A DNA stretch of 16,788 nucleotides from a virus (taxonomy: Duplodnaviria > Heunggongvirae > Uroviricota > Caudoviricetes): IMG/VR virus record IMGVR_UViG_2667528074_000009, one strand, 5' to 3'. Both the position numbers and the translations under genes were made by a program. This document shows, piece after piece, positions 1,655-15,501 of the stretch. Within the stretch, counting starts at the first letter, position 1; every line of letters starts with the position of its first letter. The notes under the pieces are model-generated. The model searched no databases. It worked only from the letters and a program-made list of their open reading frames with translations, and was not told the origin of the DNA.

Positions 1655-2704
1655 TTATCCGAGTACGCCAGTTGCAAAGGCGTGATCAAGAAAACGAAAA
1701 ATTAAATCAACCTGAGAACCATGCTTTTCTTCGAACGCCTGCGGATCTGCATGAAGTTCGTTGTGATGTTCCCGGCACAGCGGCAACGTAAAAATATCGT
1801 GGGCTTTTGTCCCCATTCCGCCCTGACCGTGACCAATCAGGTGATGTGGATCGTCTGCTGTCTTACCACAACACGTACACGGCTGTGTCTTTACCCAGCG
1901 CGTGTATTTCTCATTCACCCAGCGGCGACGTTTAGGCCGCTTCATGAATGATTCCGGTGACTCAGGATCAACGGCAATGCTGACCACCGTCTTTTCCTGT
2001 GGTGGGTTCTGTTGCTGGTGGGCTAGAGGCGGTAGCGCAATATTTTTTGTGCGCTGCTTCAGTATGCTGGTGGCTGTCTGCTCTCCCGGTACGATGTCGC
2101 TCTCGCGGTACACAGAGCGGATTTTTTCCGTACGTAATCCCAACGAACGACGTAATACTGCCTCCGGTAGCGCGTCCGCCACCTGATTGCAGACCGCCCA
2201 CCAGGATAACTCAGCCAGCGATAATTCCCGCTCTTGCGTACCATTCATTGCATGGCGTATGACGTCAATCATCCATGCTGTCAGATTTTGTTGAGCAAGC
2301 TGCCCGAGTGATTCGGATGTCTGGTCGCGCAGCTGGTTGTCGCAGTGCCAGCACAACACCATTGCGCCGGTACCGTAACGATGTATGACGGTTTCACTGT
2401 GGTGATAGTCTCCATGAGGCCACTGGCAGGATTTAACATGACGCAGGAGCCAGTCAGACAGTGCACCAGTGCCACCGGCAGCACGAATTACCCGCTCATT
2501 GCTGAAAAATGGCAGTAATGATTTATCTTCCGCCAGCGGCTGGCGAACGGCAGGGACGGCTCCGGACGGCAGACCGCGCATACTTTTCGGTTCCGGCTCC
2601 ACCAGCACTCGAGGGCTATGAAATACCTGCATGGATTCACGGCCCGGCTTTAGCACCACCAGTCCGAGTTCCGGTACCAGGGCAGGTCGAACTAATACCC
2701 GCAC
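1655..2704 (-). CDS. ydfU: DUF968-family protein (YdfU-like), 349 aa
   Basis: 349-aa ORF matching the length of the Qin YdfU protein, with a C-terminal Cys/His-rich region (CTCCGK...HHLIGHGQGG...CREHH). GTG start at 2704 preceded by GGAGG at 5-nt spacing. Confidence 0.75.
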   Translation of the reverse strand: MRVLVRPALVPELGLVVLKPGRESMQVFHSPRVLVEPEPKSMRGLPSGAVPAVRQPLAEDKSLLPFFSNERVIRAAGGTGALSDWLLRHVKSCQWPHGDYHHSETVIHRYGTGAMVLCWHCDNQLRDQTSESLGQLAQQNLTAWMIDVIRHAMNGTQERELSLAELSWWAVCNQVADALPEAVLRRSLGLRTEKIRSVYRESDIVPGEQTATSILKQRTKNIALPPLAHQQQNPPQEKTVVSIAVDPESPESFMKRPKRRRWVNEKYTRWVKTQPCTCCGKTADDPHHLIGHGQGGMGTKAHDIFTLPLCREHHNELHADPQAFEEKHGSQVDLIFRFLDHAFATGVLG

Positions 2705-2705
2705 G

Positions 2706-2978
2706 TTACCTCCAGATCCGTTGCTGGTATGTGCGGGACGGACGCGGTGGGCGTTCGGAATAAGGGAGTTTGACGTAGATTATCCAGAGACGATAATCGA
2801 GGCTGAGAGCTTTCTTAATCTCGTATCCGCGTCTGCGGTAGTTCTGAATCAGCCATTCGGCCTGTTCTTCAGTGCATGGGTCATGCTGGTACCAGTCATA
2901 TTTGAATGCATGAGAACGCCGCCCGTGCCTGCTGGCAAGGTCGGTATCAGAATTGTGATGTTTGGCATTGTGCGCCAT
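2706..2978 (-). CDS. Hypothetical protein (about 90 aa), positional equivalent of rem between hok and ydfU
   Basis: ATG at 2978 (MAHNAKHH...). The longer ORF-track start at 3089 would read through the terminator hairpin at 3055-3080. Stop TAA sits 1 nt before the DUF968 GTG. No family recognised. Confidence 0.4.
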   Translation of the reverse strand: MAHNAKHHNSDTDLASRHGRRSHAFKYDWYQHDPCTEEQAEWLIQNYRRRGYEIKKALSLDYRLWIIYVKLPYSERPPRPSRTYQQRIWR

Positions 2979-3054
2979 CGGTTTTCTCTGCTGGCGCAGC
3001 AGGTGCCAGTTGTTCAGGCTGGCCTGTGGATTGTAAACCAGAATACGTAAAACA

Positions 3055-3080
3055 AAAAACCCGCCGAAGCGGGTTTTCAT
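3055..3080. terminator. Bidirectional intrinsic terminator; copy 1 of a 21-bp direct repeat
   Basis: AAAAA-CCCGC-cgaa-GCGGG-TTTT; T-tract on plus, A-tract giving a T-run on minus. Lies 12 nt downstream of the Doc stop on the minus strand. The 21 bp at 3055-3075 are identical to 3904-3924. Confidence 0.6.
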
Positions 3081-3091
3081 TGGAAGCACCT

Positions 3092-3577
3092 TTAGTTTTG
3101 CTGTTCTATTTTAAGCTTGATAGTTTCATACAAAACAATAGTTGCGCCTGTTTTACATAATTCCCGGCTGTCATACGCACGAGACCAATAACACAACCAG
3201 TTCTCGAGATCTTCTCGAGTATAGGTTTTGCAGGCCAGTCCCTCTGCCATTTCCACGATTTCATCGCCTGGTGCTGTTAACTCATAGCCATTCAACAACA
3301 AGAAGACGTAACCAGCCATCATAGCTGTTCGTTTGTTCGCATTAGCAAACGGATGATTCTGAATCAGACTTTCAATCAATACCGATGCCAGTACAAACAT
3401 GTCATTGATCTGTTCATACCATCGAACCATGCTGGGACGGGCCTGAGAAGAACTTAAGTTATCTGGACTCAGAACACCAACGGGCTCATCTGGCGTCTGT
3501 AATTCAATTAGGGAACGATTGATTTCAACAAGATCATCAACCGTAAGGTAATGCACACCTTCAACAATCTCAGCCAT
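3092..3577 (-). CDS. doc: Doc/Fic-family toxin (death-on-curing-like), 161 aa
   Basis: Contains HPFANANKRTAM, matching the Doc variant of the Fic motif (P1 Doc has HIFNDANKRTAL). Preceded 20 nt upstream by a small antitoxin-sized gene. Confidence 0.8.
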   Translation of the reverse strand: MAEIVEGVHYLTVDDLVEINRSLIELQTPDEPVGVLSPDNLSSSQARPSMVRWYEQINDMFVLASVLIESLIQNHPFANANKRTAMMAGYVFLLLNGYELTAPGDEIVEMAEGLACKTYTREDLENWLCYWSRAYDSRELCKTGATIVLYETIKLKIEQQN

Positions 3578-3597
3578 GGAGTACAGCCCCCCATCTA

Positions 3598-3777
3598 TTA
3601 CACTTTAGAGAGGTCTTCCATGGCTTTCTCATAACGAGAAAAACCGAAATCAAAAGCATTTTTCACTTGTTCACGATGTGCGCAGTTTTCATCAATCGCT
3701 GGGCGAGGGACTGCCACAACGCTTTTATCGCGAGGCGGAATACTCAACCGCGTGTGTTTTTTGAGTGGGCAGCTCAT
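3598..3777 (-). CDS. Putative antitoxin cognate to the Doc-family toxin (59 aa)
   Basis: ATG at 3777 with AAGGA RBS about 9 nt upstream (MSCPLKKHTRLSIPPRDKSVVAVPRPAIDE...). Stop TAA 3600..3598 is 20 nt before the toxin start. Family not recognised (not Phd-like by eye). Confidence 0.55.
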   Translation of the reverse strand: MSCPLKKHTRLSIPPRDKSVVAVPRPAIDENCAHREQVKNAFDFGFSRYEKAMEDLSKV

Positions 3778-3903
3778 ACTAATGAGTCCTTTTGTTTTCC
3801 GATTATTGGCAAAGCCATGCACCAAATTTGATGCAAAATAGATCTGTTTGAGATCCTTAGGATAGTCTAATGGTAGCTAAAATTACAACCTCATAATGCG
3901 ACG

Positions 3904-3928
3904 AAAAACCCGCCGAAGCGGGTTAAGT
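3904..3928. terminator. Intrinsic terminator hairpin; copy 2 of the 21-bp direct repeat; likely 3' end of the hok mRNA
   Basis: AAAAACCCGCCGAAGCGGGTT at 3904-3924, identical to 3055-3075. Lies about 70 nt downstream of the hok stop on the minus strand. Confidence 0.55.
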
Positions 3929-3992
3929 GCGGGTGCGTTGAGGATGCCTGACACATCAGAGGTGGCGAGGGATTTCTCCCCCGCCGGGTCTC

Positions 3993-4148
3993 TTACTCCT
4001 CAGGTTCGTAAGCTGTGAAGACAGCGACCTCCGTCTGGCCGGTTCGGATTCGTACCTCGCAGAGGTCTTTCCTCGTTACCAGTGCCGTCACTATGACGGT
4101 TAAACAGATGACGATCAGGGCGATTAACATCGCCTTTTGCTGCTTCAT
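3993..4148 (-). CDS. hokD: Hok/Gef-family type I toxin (HokD/RelF-like), 51 aa
   Basis: Translation MKQQKAMLIALIVICLTVIVTALVTRKDLCEVRIRTGQTEVAVFTAYEPEE matches the HokD/RelF sequence as I recall it. GGAG RBS upstream of ATG 4148; stop TAA 3995..3993. Missing from the ORF track because it is under 60 aa. Confidence 0.9.
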   Translation of the reverse strand: MKQQKAMLIALIVICLTVIVTALVTRKDLCEVRIRTGQTEVAVFTAYEPEE

Positions 4149-4206
4149 AGCCTGCTTCTCCTTGACCTTTCGGTCCGTAAGAGGCTAACCTATGTTTGTG
4201 TGGCAT
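4000..4206 (-). CDS. mok: mok-like overlapping reading frame (68 codons)
   Basis: A 68-codon ORF starts upstream of hok and overlaps it almost entirely in another frame, the arrangement of mok in hok/mok/sok loci. Coding status inferred from position only. Confidence 0.45.
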   Translation of the reverse strand: MPHKHRLASYGPKGQGEAGYEAAKGDVNRPDRHLFNRHSDGTGNEERPLRGTNPNRPDGGRCLHSLRT

Positions 4207-4260
4207 AGATTGGGCCTCAGATTAATGTTAAGCGTCCTGCAAGACGCGTAATGTTAACTG
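4185..4260 (+). ncRNA. sok: Possible Sok-like antisense RNA (approximate, unverified)
   Basis: In hok/mok/sok loci Sok is antisense to the mok translation-initiation region, which here is around 4200. A TTGACC -35-like hexamer lies at 4162-4167 and an imperfect hairpin at 4233-4248. Boundaries are guesses. Confidence 0.2.
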
Positions 4261-4486
4261 GGGCTTTTCTCTGTCTGCCTTACAGTGGCATGCCCGAGGC
4301 AGACAGCCTCAAGCACCCGCAGCAATCTTACCGACACCGATAAGAAAACGCTATTTTTTATTGCCAGCACCATCTATCCAGGCTAATTTATCTGCGTCAG
4401 AACGGCGCAATGCGCTCGCCTGAGATACGTTTACTTGTCATTGGTAACAACAGATAACGGCAATTGTTGTTTCTGTTTTGTTTCCT

Positions 4487-4520
4487 TCAAAAACCCCGGA
4501 CCATCAAGCCGGGGTTTTTG
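4487..4520. terminator. Bidirectional intrinsic terminator
   Basis: CAAAAA-CCCCGG-accatcaag-CCGGGG-TTTTT; perfect 6-bp GC stem with A-run on one side and T-run on the other. Ends the minus-strand operon 4525-5758. Confidence 0.7.
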
Positions 4521-4524
4521 TTTG

Positions 4525-4608
4525 TTATCCCCAGCGGCAAATCGAATACACCATCAGCGCCACCGCCATCGCAATTCCTACCGTTGTGAATGCTTCAGGC
4601 CAGGTCAT
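4525..4608 (-). CDS. Small hydrophobic peptide (27 aa), translationally coupled to the upstream gene
   Basis: MTWPEAFTTVGIAMAVALMVYSICRWG; its ATG overlaps the upstream TGA (ATGA at 4605-4608); followed directly by the terminator. One predicted transmembrane helix. Absent from the ORF track. Confidence 0.4.
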   Translation of the reverse strand: MTWPEAFTTVGIAMAVALMVYSICRWG

Positions 4609-5168
4609 CGCAAAACATCCTCCGCACTTATCAGTTCGTTCCGCTTCAGGTAGTCCATCGCCTTATCCGGCAATTTACAGTCCGGCTTCACTTTCTTCAG
4701 TTGACTGACCAATTGCTTAACCAGCATGGTTAATTCGTCAGTCTGTTTGCCTGGTACTGGTGGATTGTCGGTTGTACCATGACTGGCAGTACAGTTGGCA
4801 CTTCCTCCCTTCTCCTCCCGCAGCGGTTCAGGCAACGCATCCAGTGAAGCTTTCACAAACCACGCTGCCTGTACTATAACGCCATGAATCCAGCGCAAAT
4901 CAGCATCGCGATCGTTCTTTTTCATCTTTTCACCACTTAAAGCCTGGCTTATGTGGCTGCGAACCAGGTCTTCATGTAACTCCTTCGCATCCTCAATGGT
5001 GAAACCACCAGGCAGGCGAGCCGGAGTTACCGGAGAGTTGCCAGCCTTACGCATGGCCATTTCCACGATTTCAACCATATCTCCTGGTGGAATTTTACAA
5101 AGTTGCCCAATACATTTCTGCTGCCTGGCATATTCGAGAATGTGTTCCAGTTTGGTTCGATTAATCAT
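4605..5168 (-). CDS. Hypothetical phage protein (187 aa)
   Basis: Clean ORF with ATG start; its ATG overlaps the upstream stop (TAATG at 5166-5170). No family recognised. Confidence 0.55.
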   Translation of the reverse strand: MINRTKLEHILEYARQQKCIGQLCKIPPGDMVEIVEMAMRKAGNSPVTPARLPGGFTIEDAKELHEDLVRSHISQALSGEKMKKNDRDADLRWIHGVIVQAAWFVKASLDALPEPLREEKGGSANCTASHGTTDNPPVPGKQTDELTMLVKQLVSQLKKVKPDCKLPDKAMDYLKRNELISAEDVLR

Positions 5169-5758
5169 TATTTATCTCCCTTAAGCATGGCGGCGCGGCA
5201 GGCGTTCCAGCCATCAGCATATGTTTCAGTTACACCGTCGAGATGGCAGGTAAGCAAATCCATTTCATCCGGCACTATCAGTACCGGCTGGACGGTGACA
5301 TTGGCAAAGGCTGCACGCAACCCGGCCTTAATTTCCTCTACCTCATCAGCACCTGGCGATGAATCTGACAGTGCATGATGGAATGCGTAAGCCATGTCGT
5401 CGCTTACTGCTATCGGCTCTGCTTCCAGTGATACCAGTGCAATCTGCGCCCTGACCCACGCCACCCGCGCCGGATTCACATGGCACATGTTGTTCCCTTT
5501 TTCTTCATAGTAATGCCCTTTACTCTCGTTAAATGGCAACACCTCATTCAGCCCGGCACTTCTGAAATCAGCGTGTAATTGTTCCAGTGCCGCTTCGCTG
5601 GAGGCACCGATTGATGTGAGATAATCGAAAAGATTGGCGCATAAACCATAATTTCGAGAAAACACCCCACCTGGTTTCGCCCCATTACTCAGCCACAAAT
5701 CATAAGCAATATAAAACCCGTAAAGCTGTTGTCTGATATTTTCTTTGATGTCTTGCAT
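5168..5758 (-). CDS. Hypothetical phage protein (196 aa)
   Basis: ATG at 5758 just downstream of a short hairpin; acidic protein; no family recognised. First gene of a three-gene coupled unit. Confidence 0.55.
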   Translation of the reverse strand: MQDIKENIRQQLYGFYIAYDLWLSNGAKPGGVFSRNYGLCANLFDYLTSIGASSEAALEQLHADFRSAGLNEVLPFNESKGHYYEEKGNNMCHVNPARVAWVRAQIALVSLEAEPIAVSDDMAYAFHHALSDSSPGADEVEEIKAGLRAAFANVTVQPVLIVPDEMDLLTCHLDGVTETYADGWNACRAAMLKGDK

Positions 5759-13041: not shown

Positions 13042-15501
13042 ATGCGCACTGATAAAGAAGAATTTGCATTATATTGTGAAGCAAAAAATGACAAAGTCAG
13101 AAAACGCCTTGGAATTAAAGGTGGTTTTTACTGGACTACAGCAAAAAAATTATCTGTTGCCATCTCCCGCTGCATTACCGCAATGGATGACAACGATTAT
13201 GATGAAGACGACTTTAAAAAACCCGTCCGCGTCCATTTACCCGTTGTGAATGACCTTCCACCTGAAGGCGTGTTTGATACTGAATTCTGTAACCGTTACG
13301 AAAAAGGCGGGGAAGATGGCATCACAATGGTATTTATCGCGCCCTCACCCTCTGCGCAGGACAAACCAGCCAACACTGACAATACCAACGTCAACGGCGA
13401 AGACATGACTGAGATTGAGGAGAACATGCTCCTGCCGGTTTCAGGTCAGATTCTGCCTGTTCGATGGCTGGCACAGCACGGCAGCAAAAAACCGATCACA
13501 CACGTTTCGCGGGACGAACTGCGCGCATTACATAACGCACAGGATGAAAAACTTCCCGCCGTTACCGCGCTGGCTATCTCAAATAAAGCAGCGCAACTCG
13601 AACCGCTGGAGATTCGCGATCTCCACAAACTGGTGCGAGACACTGACAAAGTTTTCCCCGCCCCCGTAAATTCGGACCTGGGACTGATAACCTCTTTTAT
13701 CGAAGCATACCTGGACGCCGACTACACCGATCGCGGTCTGCTGACAAAAGAGTGGATGAAAGGAAATCGTGTTTCGCGTATCACCCGTACGGCTTCCGGT
13801 GCAAATGCCGGTGGCGGGAACAAAACCGATCGCAATCCGAATTTAGTACACACCTTCGATACGCTGGATGTGGAGATTGCAGCAGCCACACTTCCGATGG
13901 ATTTTAATATTTATGAAATTCCGGGCAGCGTTTATCGTCGCGCAAAAGACATCGTCCTGAAAAGAGAAAGTCCGTTCAAAGAATGGTCCGCAGCACTTCG
14001 CGCAACCCCGGGTATTCTTGACTATTCCCGCGCCGCTATTTTTGCACTTATCCGGAGCGCCCACCCTGAGTTTTATCACTACCCGGGACGCCTTCAGGGG
14101 TATATCAACGCCCACTTAACGGAGACTGATCACGAGAACCCCAGCAAGGAAACTCTCGCTGCTGCACGACATACACCGGAAAAGGATATCCTGGAAGAAG
14201 TTAACCGCGAACTGGCTGCTGAACGCGAAACAGAAGAAGAAAAAAATAATGAGGAAAAATCACAACCGTCTGACGCAATGGCAGATGAACAGGCAACGAC
14301 TACTGAAGCAATGGGACAGGATACAACTGAACATCGCCAGGACACACAATCGCTGGATACTCAGGCACAGATAAATCCGGTTAATCAGGTAAAAGTTACC
14401 GCTGTCGAAGTAAACAAAATTATGCAGGCAGCCAATATCAACCAGCCTGATGCCGACAAAATACTGGCAGTCCATCGCGGTGAGTTCGTTGACGGAATTA
14501 GCGACCCGAATGATCCGAAATGGGTTAAGGGGATTGAAACCCGCGATTCTGTGAACCAGAACCAGCCCGAATCGGAACAAAACGACCAGAAAGCGGAACA
14601 AAACAGCCCAAATGCGTTACAAAACGAGCCAGAAACGAAACAGCCTGAACCAGAAGAGCAACAAGAACCGGAAAAAGTCTGCACCGCCTGCGGTCAGACC
14701 GGCAGCGGCAACTGTCCTGACTGTGGCGCGGTGATGGGCAACGCAACATACCAGGAAACATTCGATGAAAAAAATCAGGCTGAAGTTCAGGAAGATGATC
14801 CGGAGGAAATGGAAGGCGCTGAACATCCGAACAATGAGAATGCTGGTAACGATCAGCATCACACCAGCGATAGTGAAACTGGCGAGGCGGCAGATCCCTT
14901 AATTGCGGTGAACGGTCATCACGTTATCACATCCACCAGCAGAGTGTGGATTCACCTGTCGGTCGACCTTGAAACGATGGGAACAAATCCTGATGCGCCA
15001 ATCAACTCTATTGGCGGTAAATTTTTTGATCCGGCAACCGGAGAGATGGGGCCTGAATTCAGTAAAGCTATCGATCTGGAAACCTCCGGCGGAATCATCG
15101 ACCGTAAAACAATAAAGTGGTGGGCGAAACGATCACGCGAAGCACAATCCGCTATTTTTACCGATGAAATCTCGTTAGATGTTGCTCTCCGGCTATTCAT
15201 AGAATTTATCGAAAAAAACTCCGGCGGGTGTTTTGTCCAGGTATGGGGAAATGGAGCCAACTTCGACAACGTAATTTTACGCCGTTCATATGAACGGCAG
15301 GGGATCCCCTGCCCATGGCTTTACTACAACGATCGCGATGTACGCACAATCGTTGAACTGGGTAATGCCATTGGCTTTGATGTCAGAATGGCTATTCCAT
15401 TCGAAGGCGTACCCCACAATGCGCTGGACGATGCCCGTCACCAGGCAAAACAAGTTTCAGCAATCTGGCAAAGACTGATCCCGCGTCAGGCTGATTTTTA
15501 A
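13042..15501 (+). CDS. Large early-left-operon protein (819 aa) with C-terminal DEDDh-type 3'-5' exonuclease domain, acidic low-complexity linker and CxxC-N9-CxxC zinc ribbon
   Basis: C-terminal motifs VDLETMG (Exo I), WGNGANFDNVIL (Exo II) and HNALDDARHQA (Exo III); central region about aa 380-620 is rich in E/D/Q/N/T; CTACGQTGSGNCPDCG around aa 545-560; GAGG RBS 8 nt upstream. Occupies the slot of ydfE (truncated in K-12 Qin). Confidence 0.75.
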   Translation: MRTDKEEFALYCEAKNDKVRKRLGIKGGFYWTTAKKLSVAISRCITAMDDNDYDEDDFKKPVRVHLPVVNDLPPEGVFDTEFCNRYEKGGEDGITMVFIAPSPSAQDKPANTDNTNVNGEDMTEIEENMLLPVSGQILPVRWLAQHGSKKPITHVSRDELRALHNAQDEKLPAVTALAISNKAAQLEPLEIRDLHKLVRDTDKVFPAPVNSDLGLITSFIEAYLDADYTDRGLLTKEWMKGNRVSRITRTASGANAGGGNKTDRNPNLVHTFDTLDVEIAAATLPMDFNIYEIPGSVYRRAKDIVLKRESPFKEWSAALRATPGILDYSRAAIFALIRSAHPEFYHYPGRLQGYINAHLTETDHENPSKETLAAARHTPEKDILEEVNRELAAERETEEEKNNEEKSQPSDAMADEQATTTEAMGQDTTEHRQDTQSLDTQAQINPVNQVKVTAVEVNKIMQAANINQPDADKILAVHRGEFVDGISDPNDPKWVKGIETRDSVNQNQPESEQNDQKAEQNSPNALQNEPETKQPEPEEQQEPEKVCTACGQTGSGNCPDCGAVMGNATYQETFDEKNQAEVQEDDPEEMEGAEHPNNENAGNDQHHTSDSETGEAADPLIAVNGHHVITSTSRVWIHLSVDLETMGTNPDAPINSIGGKFFDPATGEMGPEFSKAIDLETSGGIIDRKTIKWWAKRSREAQSAIFTDEISLDVALRLFIEFIEKNSGGCFVQVWGNGANFDNVILRRSYERQGIPCPWLYYNDRDVRTIVELGNAIGFDVRMAIPFEGVPHNALDDARHQAKQVSAIWQRLIPRQADF

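Follow-up and report, generated by a model that had tools for sequence, protein, structure and literature searches.

A putative Doc-type toxin-antitoxin moron between terminator hairpins in a variable slot next to hok in a lambdoid prophage

Layout of the Doc cassette and its paired hairpins

We analyzed a 16,788-nucleotide stretch of viral DNA (Caudoviricetes; IMG/VR record IMGVR_UViG_2667528074_000009; hereafter the window), in which a toxin-antitoxin (TA) cassette of the Doc (death-on-curing) family lies between two identical hairpins next to the hok gene. Judged by comparative sequence evidence, the best explanation for this arrangement, which we regard as fairly likely, is that the cassette is a moron, an autonomous accessory unit of transcription, occupying a hypervariable slot after the hok/sok terminator and exchanged at the hairpin. 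The proposed unit, located in the early-right operon of a Rac/Qin-like lambdoid prophage, would comprise a weak promoter, the gene for a 59-amino-acid (aa) antitoxin, the Doc gene, and its own UUCG-tetraloop terminator. Features expected of a moron were observed, namely a precise empty site in collinear genomes, a terminator of its own, and a deviating base composition.

The 21-mer AAAAACCCGCCGAAGCGGGTT is present in two exact copies in direct orientation, at 3055-3075 and 3904-3924, and thus flanks the genes at 3092-3777 exactly as a preliminary description of this DNA had reported. A comparable match was obtained in 0 of 200 dinucleotide shuffles, and no further copies of the 21-mer were found in the window even when three mismatches were allowed; tolerating one mismatch lengthens the direct repeat to 24 nt. 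Both copies form, on the minus strand, a CCCGC-UUCG-GCGGG stem-loop followed by a U-tract. The left hairpin (HP-L, 3055..3075, minus strand), GAAAACCCGC-UUCG-GCGGGUUUUUUGUUUU, was called as a terminator, closes the Doc cassette at its 3' end, and has a folding energy of -16.9 kcal/mol (z = -3.1). The right hairpin (HP-R, 3904..3924, minus strand) is the exact 21-mer that adjoins hok and serves as the terminator of the hok mRNA; it is present at every prophage hokD locus examined, including that of the K-12 Qin prophage, and the match of the window to K-12 hokD begins precisely at HP-R. The U-tract of HP-R is short, with five U residues followed by CG. The DNA between the hairpins consists of a 126-bp AT-rich spacer, a 59-aa open reading frame (ORF), and a 161-aa ORF, the two ORFs being separated by 20 nt that include a G-rich Shine-Dalgarno sequence. 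The GC content of the cassette is 0.43, compared to 0.54 in both flanks. The genes relevant here are all read from the minus strand, which corresponds to PR (early-right) transcription in a Rac/Qin-like lambdoid prophage.

Empty sites and alternative cargos of the slot

Megablast searches with region 2900-4300 against 5,426 complete E. coli genomes, a set with about 11,000 hokD places, matched the hok side in 4,747 genomes, in many places as two pieces about 555 bp apart. In strain ETEC1734, the left flank, one hairpin, and the right flank (…cagaatacgtaaaacaAAAAACCCGCCGAAACGGGTTaagcgcgggtgcg…) correspond to the window minus 3076-3924. The same arrangement of a single hairpin with the same flanks was found in many other E. 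coli genomes and in 53 of 119 viral contigs (among the matches listed). In pairs of filled and empty alleles, both flanks were 95-99% identical right up to the hairpin. The preliminary description had proposed a discrete cassette and a comparison of related prophages for an empty site; the empty sites obtained, each with a single hairpin between the same flanks, agree with that proposal, except that the flanking gene it had called rem-like is not rem.

The Doc cassette itself was detected in 125 E. coli genomes, always on the chromosome, and directly after hokD in each E. coli locus inspected. Two E. coli classes of the cassette were distinguished, with genes 86-95% identical and different 126-bp upstream spacers. 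Members of the antitoxin family occur in about 2% of the complete E. coli genomes, among them strains of O104:H4, O121:H19, O157:H7, and ETEC O6:H16. Searches of isolated phages and plasmids yielded weak matches only (Salmonella phage SW-37 at 71%, a Pseudomonas phage, and a Proteus record). In E. coli O104:H4 2009EL-2071 (locus 2337-2966), a convergent pair of a RelE/ParE toxin and a helix-turn-helix (HTH) protein lies beyond the left hairpin; with this RelE-like pair next to Doc, three TA systems (hok/sok, Doc, and RelE-like) occur within 2 kb.

A scan of IMG/VR with the hok-proximal hairpin and the hok-side flank retrieved at least 120 contigs, of which 119 could be classified by the sequence abutting the hairpin. 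Among the matches listed, 53 contigs have an empty slot, in which the 92-aa ORF/DUF968 module abuts the hairpin, and 39 carry a Rem homologue. The Doc cassette occupies the slot in 6 contigs, three subtypes of the Rosmerta system (RmrT and RmrA; PADLOC E-values down to 6e-105) in another 6, and a pair of HTH and M78-peptidase genes in 2, whereas the remaining 13 contigs fall into four further states, with either small ORFs or no ORF. A second hairpin accompanies all 14 of the two-gene TA or defence cassettes (6 of 6 Doc, 6 of 6 Rosmerta, and 2 of 2 HTH-M78 contigs) and none of the 105 contigs in the other states. Overall, the slot has at least 12 states and at least 10 different inserts. Two hairpins around unrelated DNA with no empty site, the scenario named in advance as contradicting a cassette, do not describe this locus, at which both empty sites and alternative cargos exist. 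In E. coli 042, a lipoprotein gene lies between two partly degenerate hairpins.

Among the E. coli genomes, 237 carry Rosmerta-a and 23 carry Rosmerta-b, and in nearly all records (among the matches listed) the Rosmerta matches run from hairpin to hairpin over the query from end to end. The upstream spacers of the Rosmerta cassettes contain repeated TTGTCAACCA motifs, possibly operators of the HTH protein RmrA. The cassette with the HTH-M78 pair encodes a 119-aa HTH protein and a 158-aa M78/ImmA-like peptidase, with 1347 bp between the hairpins; a search against PADLOC returned the generic HTH model only and no system, and the pair may represent an uncharacterised split Rosmerta-like or ImmR/ImmA-like module. 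With its fixed position and diverse cargos, including recognised Rosmerta defence systems, the slot has the properties of a defence hotspot and, by analogy, behaves like the P2/P4 defence hotspots.

The Doc toxin and its putative antitoxin

The 161-aa protein (3092..3577, minus strand) matches the death-on-curing family TIGR01550 (E = 1.6e-37; 128.4 bits against a cut-off of 38.65), the Pfam Fic family (PF02661; E = 1e-11; 46 bits against a cut-off of 24), and PHROG 577, 'Doc-like toxin' (E = 1.7e-51). It aligns with the P1 Doc structures 3K33 and 3DD7 through the active-site motif, and the kinase-type motif H-x-F-x-[D/N]-[A/G]-N-K-R is present as HPFANANKRTA, compared with HIFNDANKRTA in P1 Doc (3K33) and HCFYNANKRTA in 9VZC. 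Its assignment to the Doc/Fic family in the preliminary description, which was to be abandoned if the motif were lost on proper alignment, is therefore retained. By sequence, the toxin is a typical Doc-subfamily protein, and NCBI already annotates it accordingly. P1 Doc is a Fic-fold EF-Tu kinase of the type II TA system phd-doc. As a predicted Fic-fold kinase of the same family, the toxin of the window would phosphorylate EF-Tu and thereby arrest translation.

The upstream 59-aa protein (3598..3777, minus strand) is a putative antitoxin of an unnamed family. Of the profile search proposed for it earlier, one part was productive, with a match to PHROG 2208 (unknown function; E = 1.4e-40), and the other was not, with no match in Pfam or NCBIfam; PADLOC and PDB (searched by sequence and by profile) likewise gave none, the best PDB match, a TLE1 fragment with E = 0.35, not being credible. 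The 33 N-terminal residues are extended and contain a conserved RL-IP-RDK motif, and the C-terminal helix (residues 34-57) has the near-invariant sequence QVKNAF..F.RYEKAME.LSKV. The AlphaFold2 model consists of this single helix, with a predicted local distance difference test score of 82 overall and about 96 in residues 34-57. Neither the model nor the family searches revealed a recognisable DNA-binding domain. A relationship to the Phd/YefM antitoxins was considered and rejected: the alignment to P1 Phd by hhalign reached a probability of 1.4%, there was no Pfam match, and the protein has one helix. The P1 Phd sequence used in this comparison was verified against P1 records in which both phd and doc are present.

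The antitoxin family is small, comprising 13 clusters at 90% identity (among 5.8 billion proteins) and 33 at 50% identity (among 1.84 billion). In each of 13 loci from 11 species, belonging to Serratia, Citrobacter, Kluyvera, Hafnia, Rosenbergiella, Morganella, Providencia (four loci), Yersinia pestis, and Ewingella, the antitoxin gene is followed within 3-20 nt by a gene for a Doc homologue with 64-73% identity; hok is absent from all 13 of these loci of other genera. On the basis of this constant pairing, the 59-aa protein is read as the cognate antitoxin of Doc. The general features of a type II TA system are also seen, with a co-oriented small gene just upstream of the toxin gene (20-nt gap) and a pair conserved across taxa. 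In Ewingella (locus 4001-4670), the antitoxin-Doc pair is located between tail/baseplate genes of an unrelated myovirus-like prophage and is followed by a long composite hairpin with an arm resembling that of the window hairpins.

The 59-aa protein fits the 'neutralisation-domain-only' antitoxins treated in PMC10440598. Neutralisation of Doc would be achieved by its conserved C-terminal helix, probably together with the extended N-terminal motif, being laid onto the toxin; such binding can be likened to that of the C-terminal part of Phd, without homology to Phd.

Physiological role of the cassette

Its sequence context indicates that the Doc cassette most likely serves as a prophage-borne abortive-infection or superinfection defence, a role favoured by the Rosmerta systems that occupy the corresponding slot of sibling prophages. 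When antitoxin synthesis is halted, either by loss of the prophage or by host shut-off upon phage infection, Doc would be freed. Alternatively, the cassette could function primarily in prophage addiction, supplementing hok/sok in post-segregational killing. The founding Doc system, phd-doc, stabilises the P1 plasmid prophage; in addition, the E. coli cassette is always found beside hok/sok and is not listed by PADLOC. However, recognised Rosmerta defence systems are alternative cargos of the very same slot, the Ewingella pair occupies a tail/baseplate cluster without hok, which is a typical location of defence morons, and the benefit of addiction is less obvious for an integrated prophage. We therefore consider addiction as the primary function possible but rather doubtful.

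Junctions at the left hairpin and the mode of cassette exchange

What follows one and the same Doc cassette beyond the left hairpin varies between at least six unrelated sequences, and the homology breaks at the hairpin each time. The 92-aa-ORF module is represented among these downstream sequences in two variants; a RelE/HTH pair, DUF1367 modules, and a context interrupted by IS66 are further examples. Three of the contexts also abut a single hok hairpin directly, with 53, 3, and 3 'empty' partners, respectively (among the matches listed). The context with the 92-aa ORF hosts Doc, two Rosmerta subtypes, and the HTH-M78 pair, and the rem context hosts Rosmerta-a. At the left hairpin, the variant of the A-tract beside the stem (CAAAA or AAAAA) tracks the downstream module and the bases after GGGT track the cargo, which suggests that this hairpin is chimeric, with the exchange point inside the ~17-nt core.

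The hok-less Doc pairs of other genera end in terminators, with an identical core in Citrobacter (CCCGC-UUCG-GCGGG), another loop in Morganella (CCCGC-UCAG-GCGGG), and a compensatory stem change in Providencia (CCCAC-UUCG-GUGGG); the other hok-less Doc loci have related or different terminator stems. A diverged Rosmerta-a in a hok-less lambdoid prophage of strain KL53 ends in CCCGC-AUAUA-GCGGG. Because hok-less Doc pairs already end in a terminator of this kind, the left hairpin is probably the cassette's own terminator and not a target-site duplication. Of the two mechanisms offered in the preliminary description, recombination between hairpins thus fits better, given the six or more downstream modules, whereas duplication of the hok hairpin upon insertion is disfavoured by the hairpin-like terminators of the hok-less cassettes.

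In the proposed mechanism, the ~17-21-bp hairpin core, as the only sequence common to the resident site and the cassettes, would be the crossover point, and recombination between hairpins of collinear phage genomes would add, delete, and re-partner cassettes. An empty site would keep one hairpin and any cargo would acquire two direct copies, the left one turned chimeric by the crossover, with the A-tract side derived from the recipient and the distal side from the cargo. One unequal crossover between HP-L and the sole hairpin of another genome would suffice for all the arrangements observed, and the reverse event would produce an empty site. The homology offered by the hairpin is shorter than RecA usually needs; the prophage's own exonuclease of the Exo VIII family might support such short-homology exchange.

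We also considered that the hairpin has no special role, the cassettes being moved by ordinary homologous recombination in hok and in the 92-aa ORF/DUF968 genes, with terminators that are convergent or homogenised by gene conversion. The long, 95-99% identical flanks of the filled and empty alleles could carry such crossovers. Moreover, terminators are commonly built as C(UUCG)G hairpins on CCCGC stems, and similar terminators with other loops (CCCGCCGTAGCGGG and CCCGC-ATATA-GCGGG) occur nearby. This explanation nevertheless appears unlikely, since it cannot explain why Doc is followed by six or more non-homologous modules and why the break coincides exactly with the hairpin. It also has to contend with the three downstream modules that abut a single hok hairpin directly, with a 14-nt hairpin core that occurs only at the hok locus across the 1.29 Mb of IMG/VR contigs listed, and with the restriction of the second hairpin to two-gene cassettes (14/14 versus 0/105, among the matches listed). 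Insertion with target duplication, in which staggered cuts around the hok terminator would have generated the left hairpin as a 21-24-bp target-site duplication, would account for perfectly identical direct repeats exactly at the cargo boundaries and for the like arrangement of five unrelated cargos, but is highly improbable in view of the lack of a transposase or recombinase gene in any cargo (the ORFs are TA or defence genes only), the lack of detectable terminal inverted repeats, the hairpin-like terminators on hok-less Doc pairs (Citrobacter, Morganella, Providencia, and Ewingella) and on Rosmerta-a in KL53, and the frequent cargo-proximal differences between left and right copies (GGGTAT versus GGGTTAAG), as expected for a chimeric site.

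Several points weigh against a Doc moron exchanged at the hairpin. Recombination at this site is deduced from breakpoints alone, and a constrained terminator would mimic a joint wherever a crossover had fallen within or beside the hairpin. The model does not account for the origin of the first two-hairpin arrangement. The candidate promoter is weak (4/6 and 4/6 hexamer positions, 18-nt spacer) and was not called by the promoter scan. Finally, the toxin has Asn in its motif at the position of the P1 Doc Asp, and no PADLOC model matches either the toxin or the 59-aa protein.

Promoter and operator candidates

A candidate promoter of the cassette is predicted at 3859..3888 on the minus strand, with the -35 hexamer TTGTAA (3888-3883), an 18-nt spacer, and the -10 hexamer TATCCT (3864-3859). 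The hexamer positions are invariant between the two E. coli cassette classes, in which the upstream regions are otherwise diverged. A scan of region 2900-4400 for the sigma-70 consensus called no promoter, TTGTAA-N18-TATCCT falling below the threshold; the promoter expected of an independent moron has here a conserved but sub-threshold candidate.

The inverted repeat GATCT-N5-AGATC, previously suggested as an autoregulatory operator and placed at 3826-3840, is located at 3841-3855, about +1 to +15 relative to the candidate promoter. An equally long or longer perfect inverted repeat was held by 248 of 300 shuffles of the 126-bp spacer, indicating a chance-level feature; the repeat is absent from the class-2 E. 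coli cassettes, and the antitoxin has no detectable DNA-binding domain. The operator assignment is accordingly withdrawn. An 18-bp near-perfect palindrome, TGCACCAAATTTGATGCA, at 3818-3835 in the predicted 5' untranslated region of the antitoxin gene was observed in class-1 cassettes only.

Across genera, the upstream regions could not be aligned and revealed no conserved regulatory element, the inverted repeats being lineage-specific. The Doc cassettes of Providencia and Morganella have a near-consensus promoter, TTGACT-N17-TATAAC, whose spacer contains an 8-9-bp inverted repeat, TAATGNAA-N6-TTNCATTA, with a covarying central base. This repeat is a better operator candidate than anything within the window. 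The occurrence of longer, unrelated inverted repeats at promoters in other genera makes some palindrome-based regulation in the family plausible.

The hok/sok locus and flanking genes

The hok gene (3993..4148, minus strand) encodes a 51-aa type I toxin of the HokD type that matches the Pfam family HOK_GEF (PF01848) with E = 1.2e-23 and is annotated as hokD in homologous loci. The hok leader/sok antisense region (4146..4318, minus strand) matches Rfam family RF01794 with 109 bits (gathering score 59), and was the sole family matched in an Rfam scan of the window, which revealed no known repeat element. The Hok peptide and the sok/leader RNA together make up a type I TA system, which lies immediately upstream of HP-R; in K-12 Qin, hokD has a hairpin at the equivalent place.

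On the other side of the cassette, the 90-aa ORF at 2706..2978 (minus strand; PHROG 1212) had been described as rem-like. It has no alignment to K-12 Rem and is instead homologous to an unnamed 92-aa ORF that precedes ydfU in K-12 Qin (74% identity, E = 1e-50). It is followed by a YdfU-like DUF968 gene (1655..2704, minus strand; Pfam DUF968, E = 7.6e-78), which belongs to the conserved downstream module. The most frequent single-gene occupant of the slot shares 72% identity with K-12 Rem, which places K-12 rem at the position of Doc in the window. In K-12 Qin, rem is flanked by the hokD hairpin on one side and by the unnamed 92-aa ORF on the other; given its presence in the K-12 slot and that of Rem homologues in 39 of the 119 contigs (among the matches listed), without a second hairpin, we concluded that rem is a cargo and not a part of the backbone.

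On the minus strand, the genes are arranged in the order YdaS/Cro-like and YdaT genes, replication genes, DUF1627, DUF977, and two ORFs of unknown function, followed by hok/sok, the Doc cassette, the 90-aa ORF, DUF968, and the antiterminator Q gene. The two ORFs upstream of hok (4605-5168 and 5168-5758, minus strand; 187 and 196 aa) have no Pfam match and show piecewise matches to several PHROGs of unknown function, suggesting mosaic proteins. The opposite strand carries a repressor-like gene, an exonuclease gene of the Exo VIII family, and an integrase-like gene. The 819-aa product of the Exo VIII-type gene (13042-15501, plus strand) has an Exonuclease VIII (RecE) region at its N-terminus and an Rv2179c-like 3'-5' exoribonuclease domain at its C-terminus, and no obvious ORF for a RecT-type annealase was identified beside it. 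In the closest full-length relative (locus 2048-3552), a pair of genes for a PP2C phosphatase and a Ser-Thr kinase is located downstream of Q as a moron-like insertion.

Implications for modular phage evolution

A bolder interpretation, which we put forward tentatively, is that the hok hairpin acts as a recombinase-independent docking site, formally equivalent to attB, with the ~17-bp UUCG terminator core of the cassettes as the formal attP; the hotspot would then be a previously undescribed one, and the 59-aa protein would be the founding member of a new family of Doc antitoxins that consist of a neutralisation domain only. Cassettes would integrate, excise, and re-partner by short-homology recombination via phage annealases or hairpin-stalled replication. 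If this were true, transcription terminators would be the long-postulated linker sequences of modular phage evolution. Whether mosaic joints of phages form at short conserved sequences, or whether illegitimate recombination is random and its products are then selected, is an old debate reviewed in PMC3945230. The hok slot offers a clean natural test case for this question, with one 17-21-bp hairpin as the joint for at least five types of cargo and at least six downstream modules.

As a hotspot beside hok and upstream of the DUF968/RusA/Q module, the slot could be mined in the same manner as the P2/P4 hotspots. Its uncharacterised occupants include 64-, 83-, and 75-aa ORFs, a lipoprotein, and rem. 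PHROG 2208 represents a small putative antitoxin family without a name, whose members are always found with a Doc subfamily in prophages of Enterobacterales.

Comparison with known systems

The window and K-12 Qin, with its gene order relBE-hokD-rem-ydfU, share the backbone and the hok terminator hairpin. They differ in that Qin has the type II TA genes relBE upstream of hokD and rem in the slot, whereas the window lacks relBE and has the Doc TA cassette in the slot. The P1 phd-doc system resembles the cassette in the TIGR01550 subfamily of its toxin, in the motif H-x-F-x-[DN]-A-N-K-R-T-A, in the small upstream antitoxin gene, and in being prophage-borne. In contrast, the P1 antitoxin belongs to the Phd/YefM family and has an N-terminal DNA-binding domain, whereas that of the window has 59 aa and one predicted helix; the toxin of the window is 35 aa longer than P1 Doc, with Asn at the acidic motif position, and P1 is a plasmid prophage, whereas the window represents an integrated lambdoid prophage.

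Integron gene cassettes offer a formal analogy, in that promoter- or terminator-bounded cargos with imperfect hairpin repeats are stacked or exchanged at one site. The element of the window differs by lacking an integrase and attI, by a hairpin that is a transcription terminator, and by cargos with putative promoters of their own.

No description of a hok-adjacent slot, of a linkage between Doc and hokD, or of terminator-to-terminator exchange of cargos was found in searches of PubMed Central (PMC) and bioRxiv, and the hairpin-delimited defence/TA hotspot next to hok is apparently undescribed. A counterpart is the hotspot of PMC13586616, which likewise has a fixed place between conserved phage genes, many small alternative defence or TA systems, and rapid swapping of cargos; the words 'terminator' and 'hairpin' are both absent from its text. 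The slot of the window differs from that hotspot in its phage family, which is lambdoid (on the nin-region side of hok), and in its junctions, which are formed by a 17-21-bp terminator hairpin.

With the lambdoid morons, a concept described in PMC3594210, the Doc cassette shares its apparent organization as an independent transcription unit with its own terminator, its presence or absence between collinear genes, its deviating composition, and a cargo presumably beneficial to the host or prophage. Unlike those morons, it occupies a slot that is re-used by at least 10 inserts and is bounded by a specific shared hairpin.

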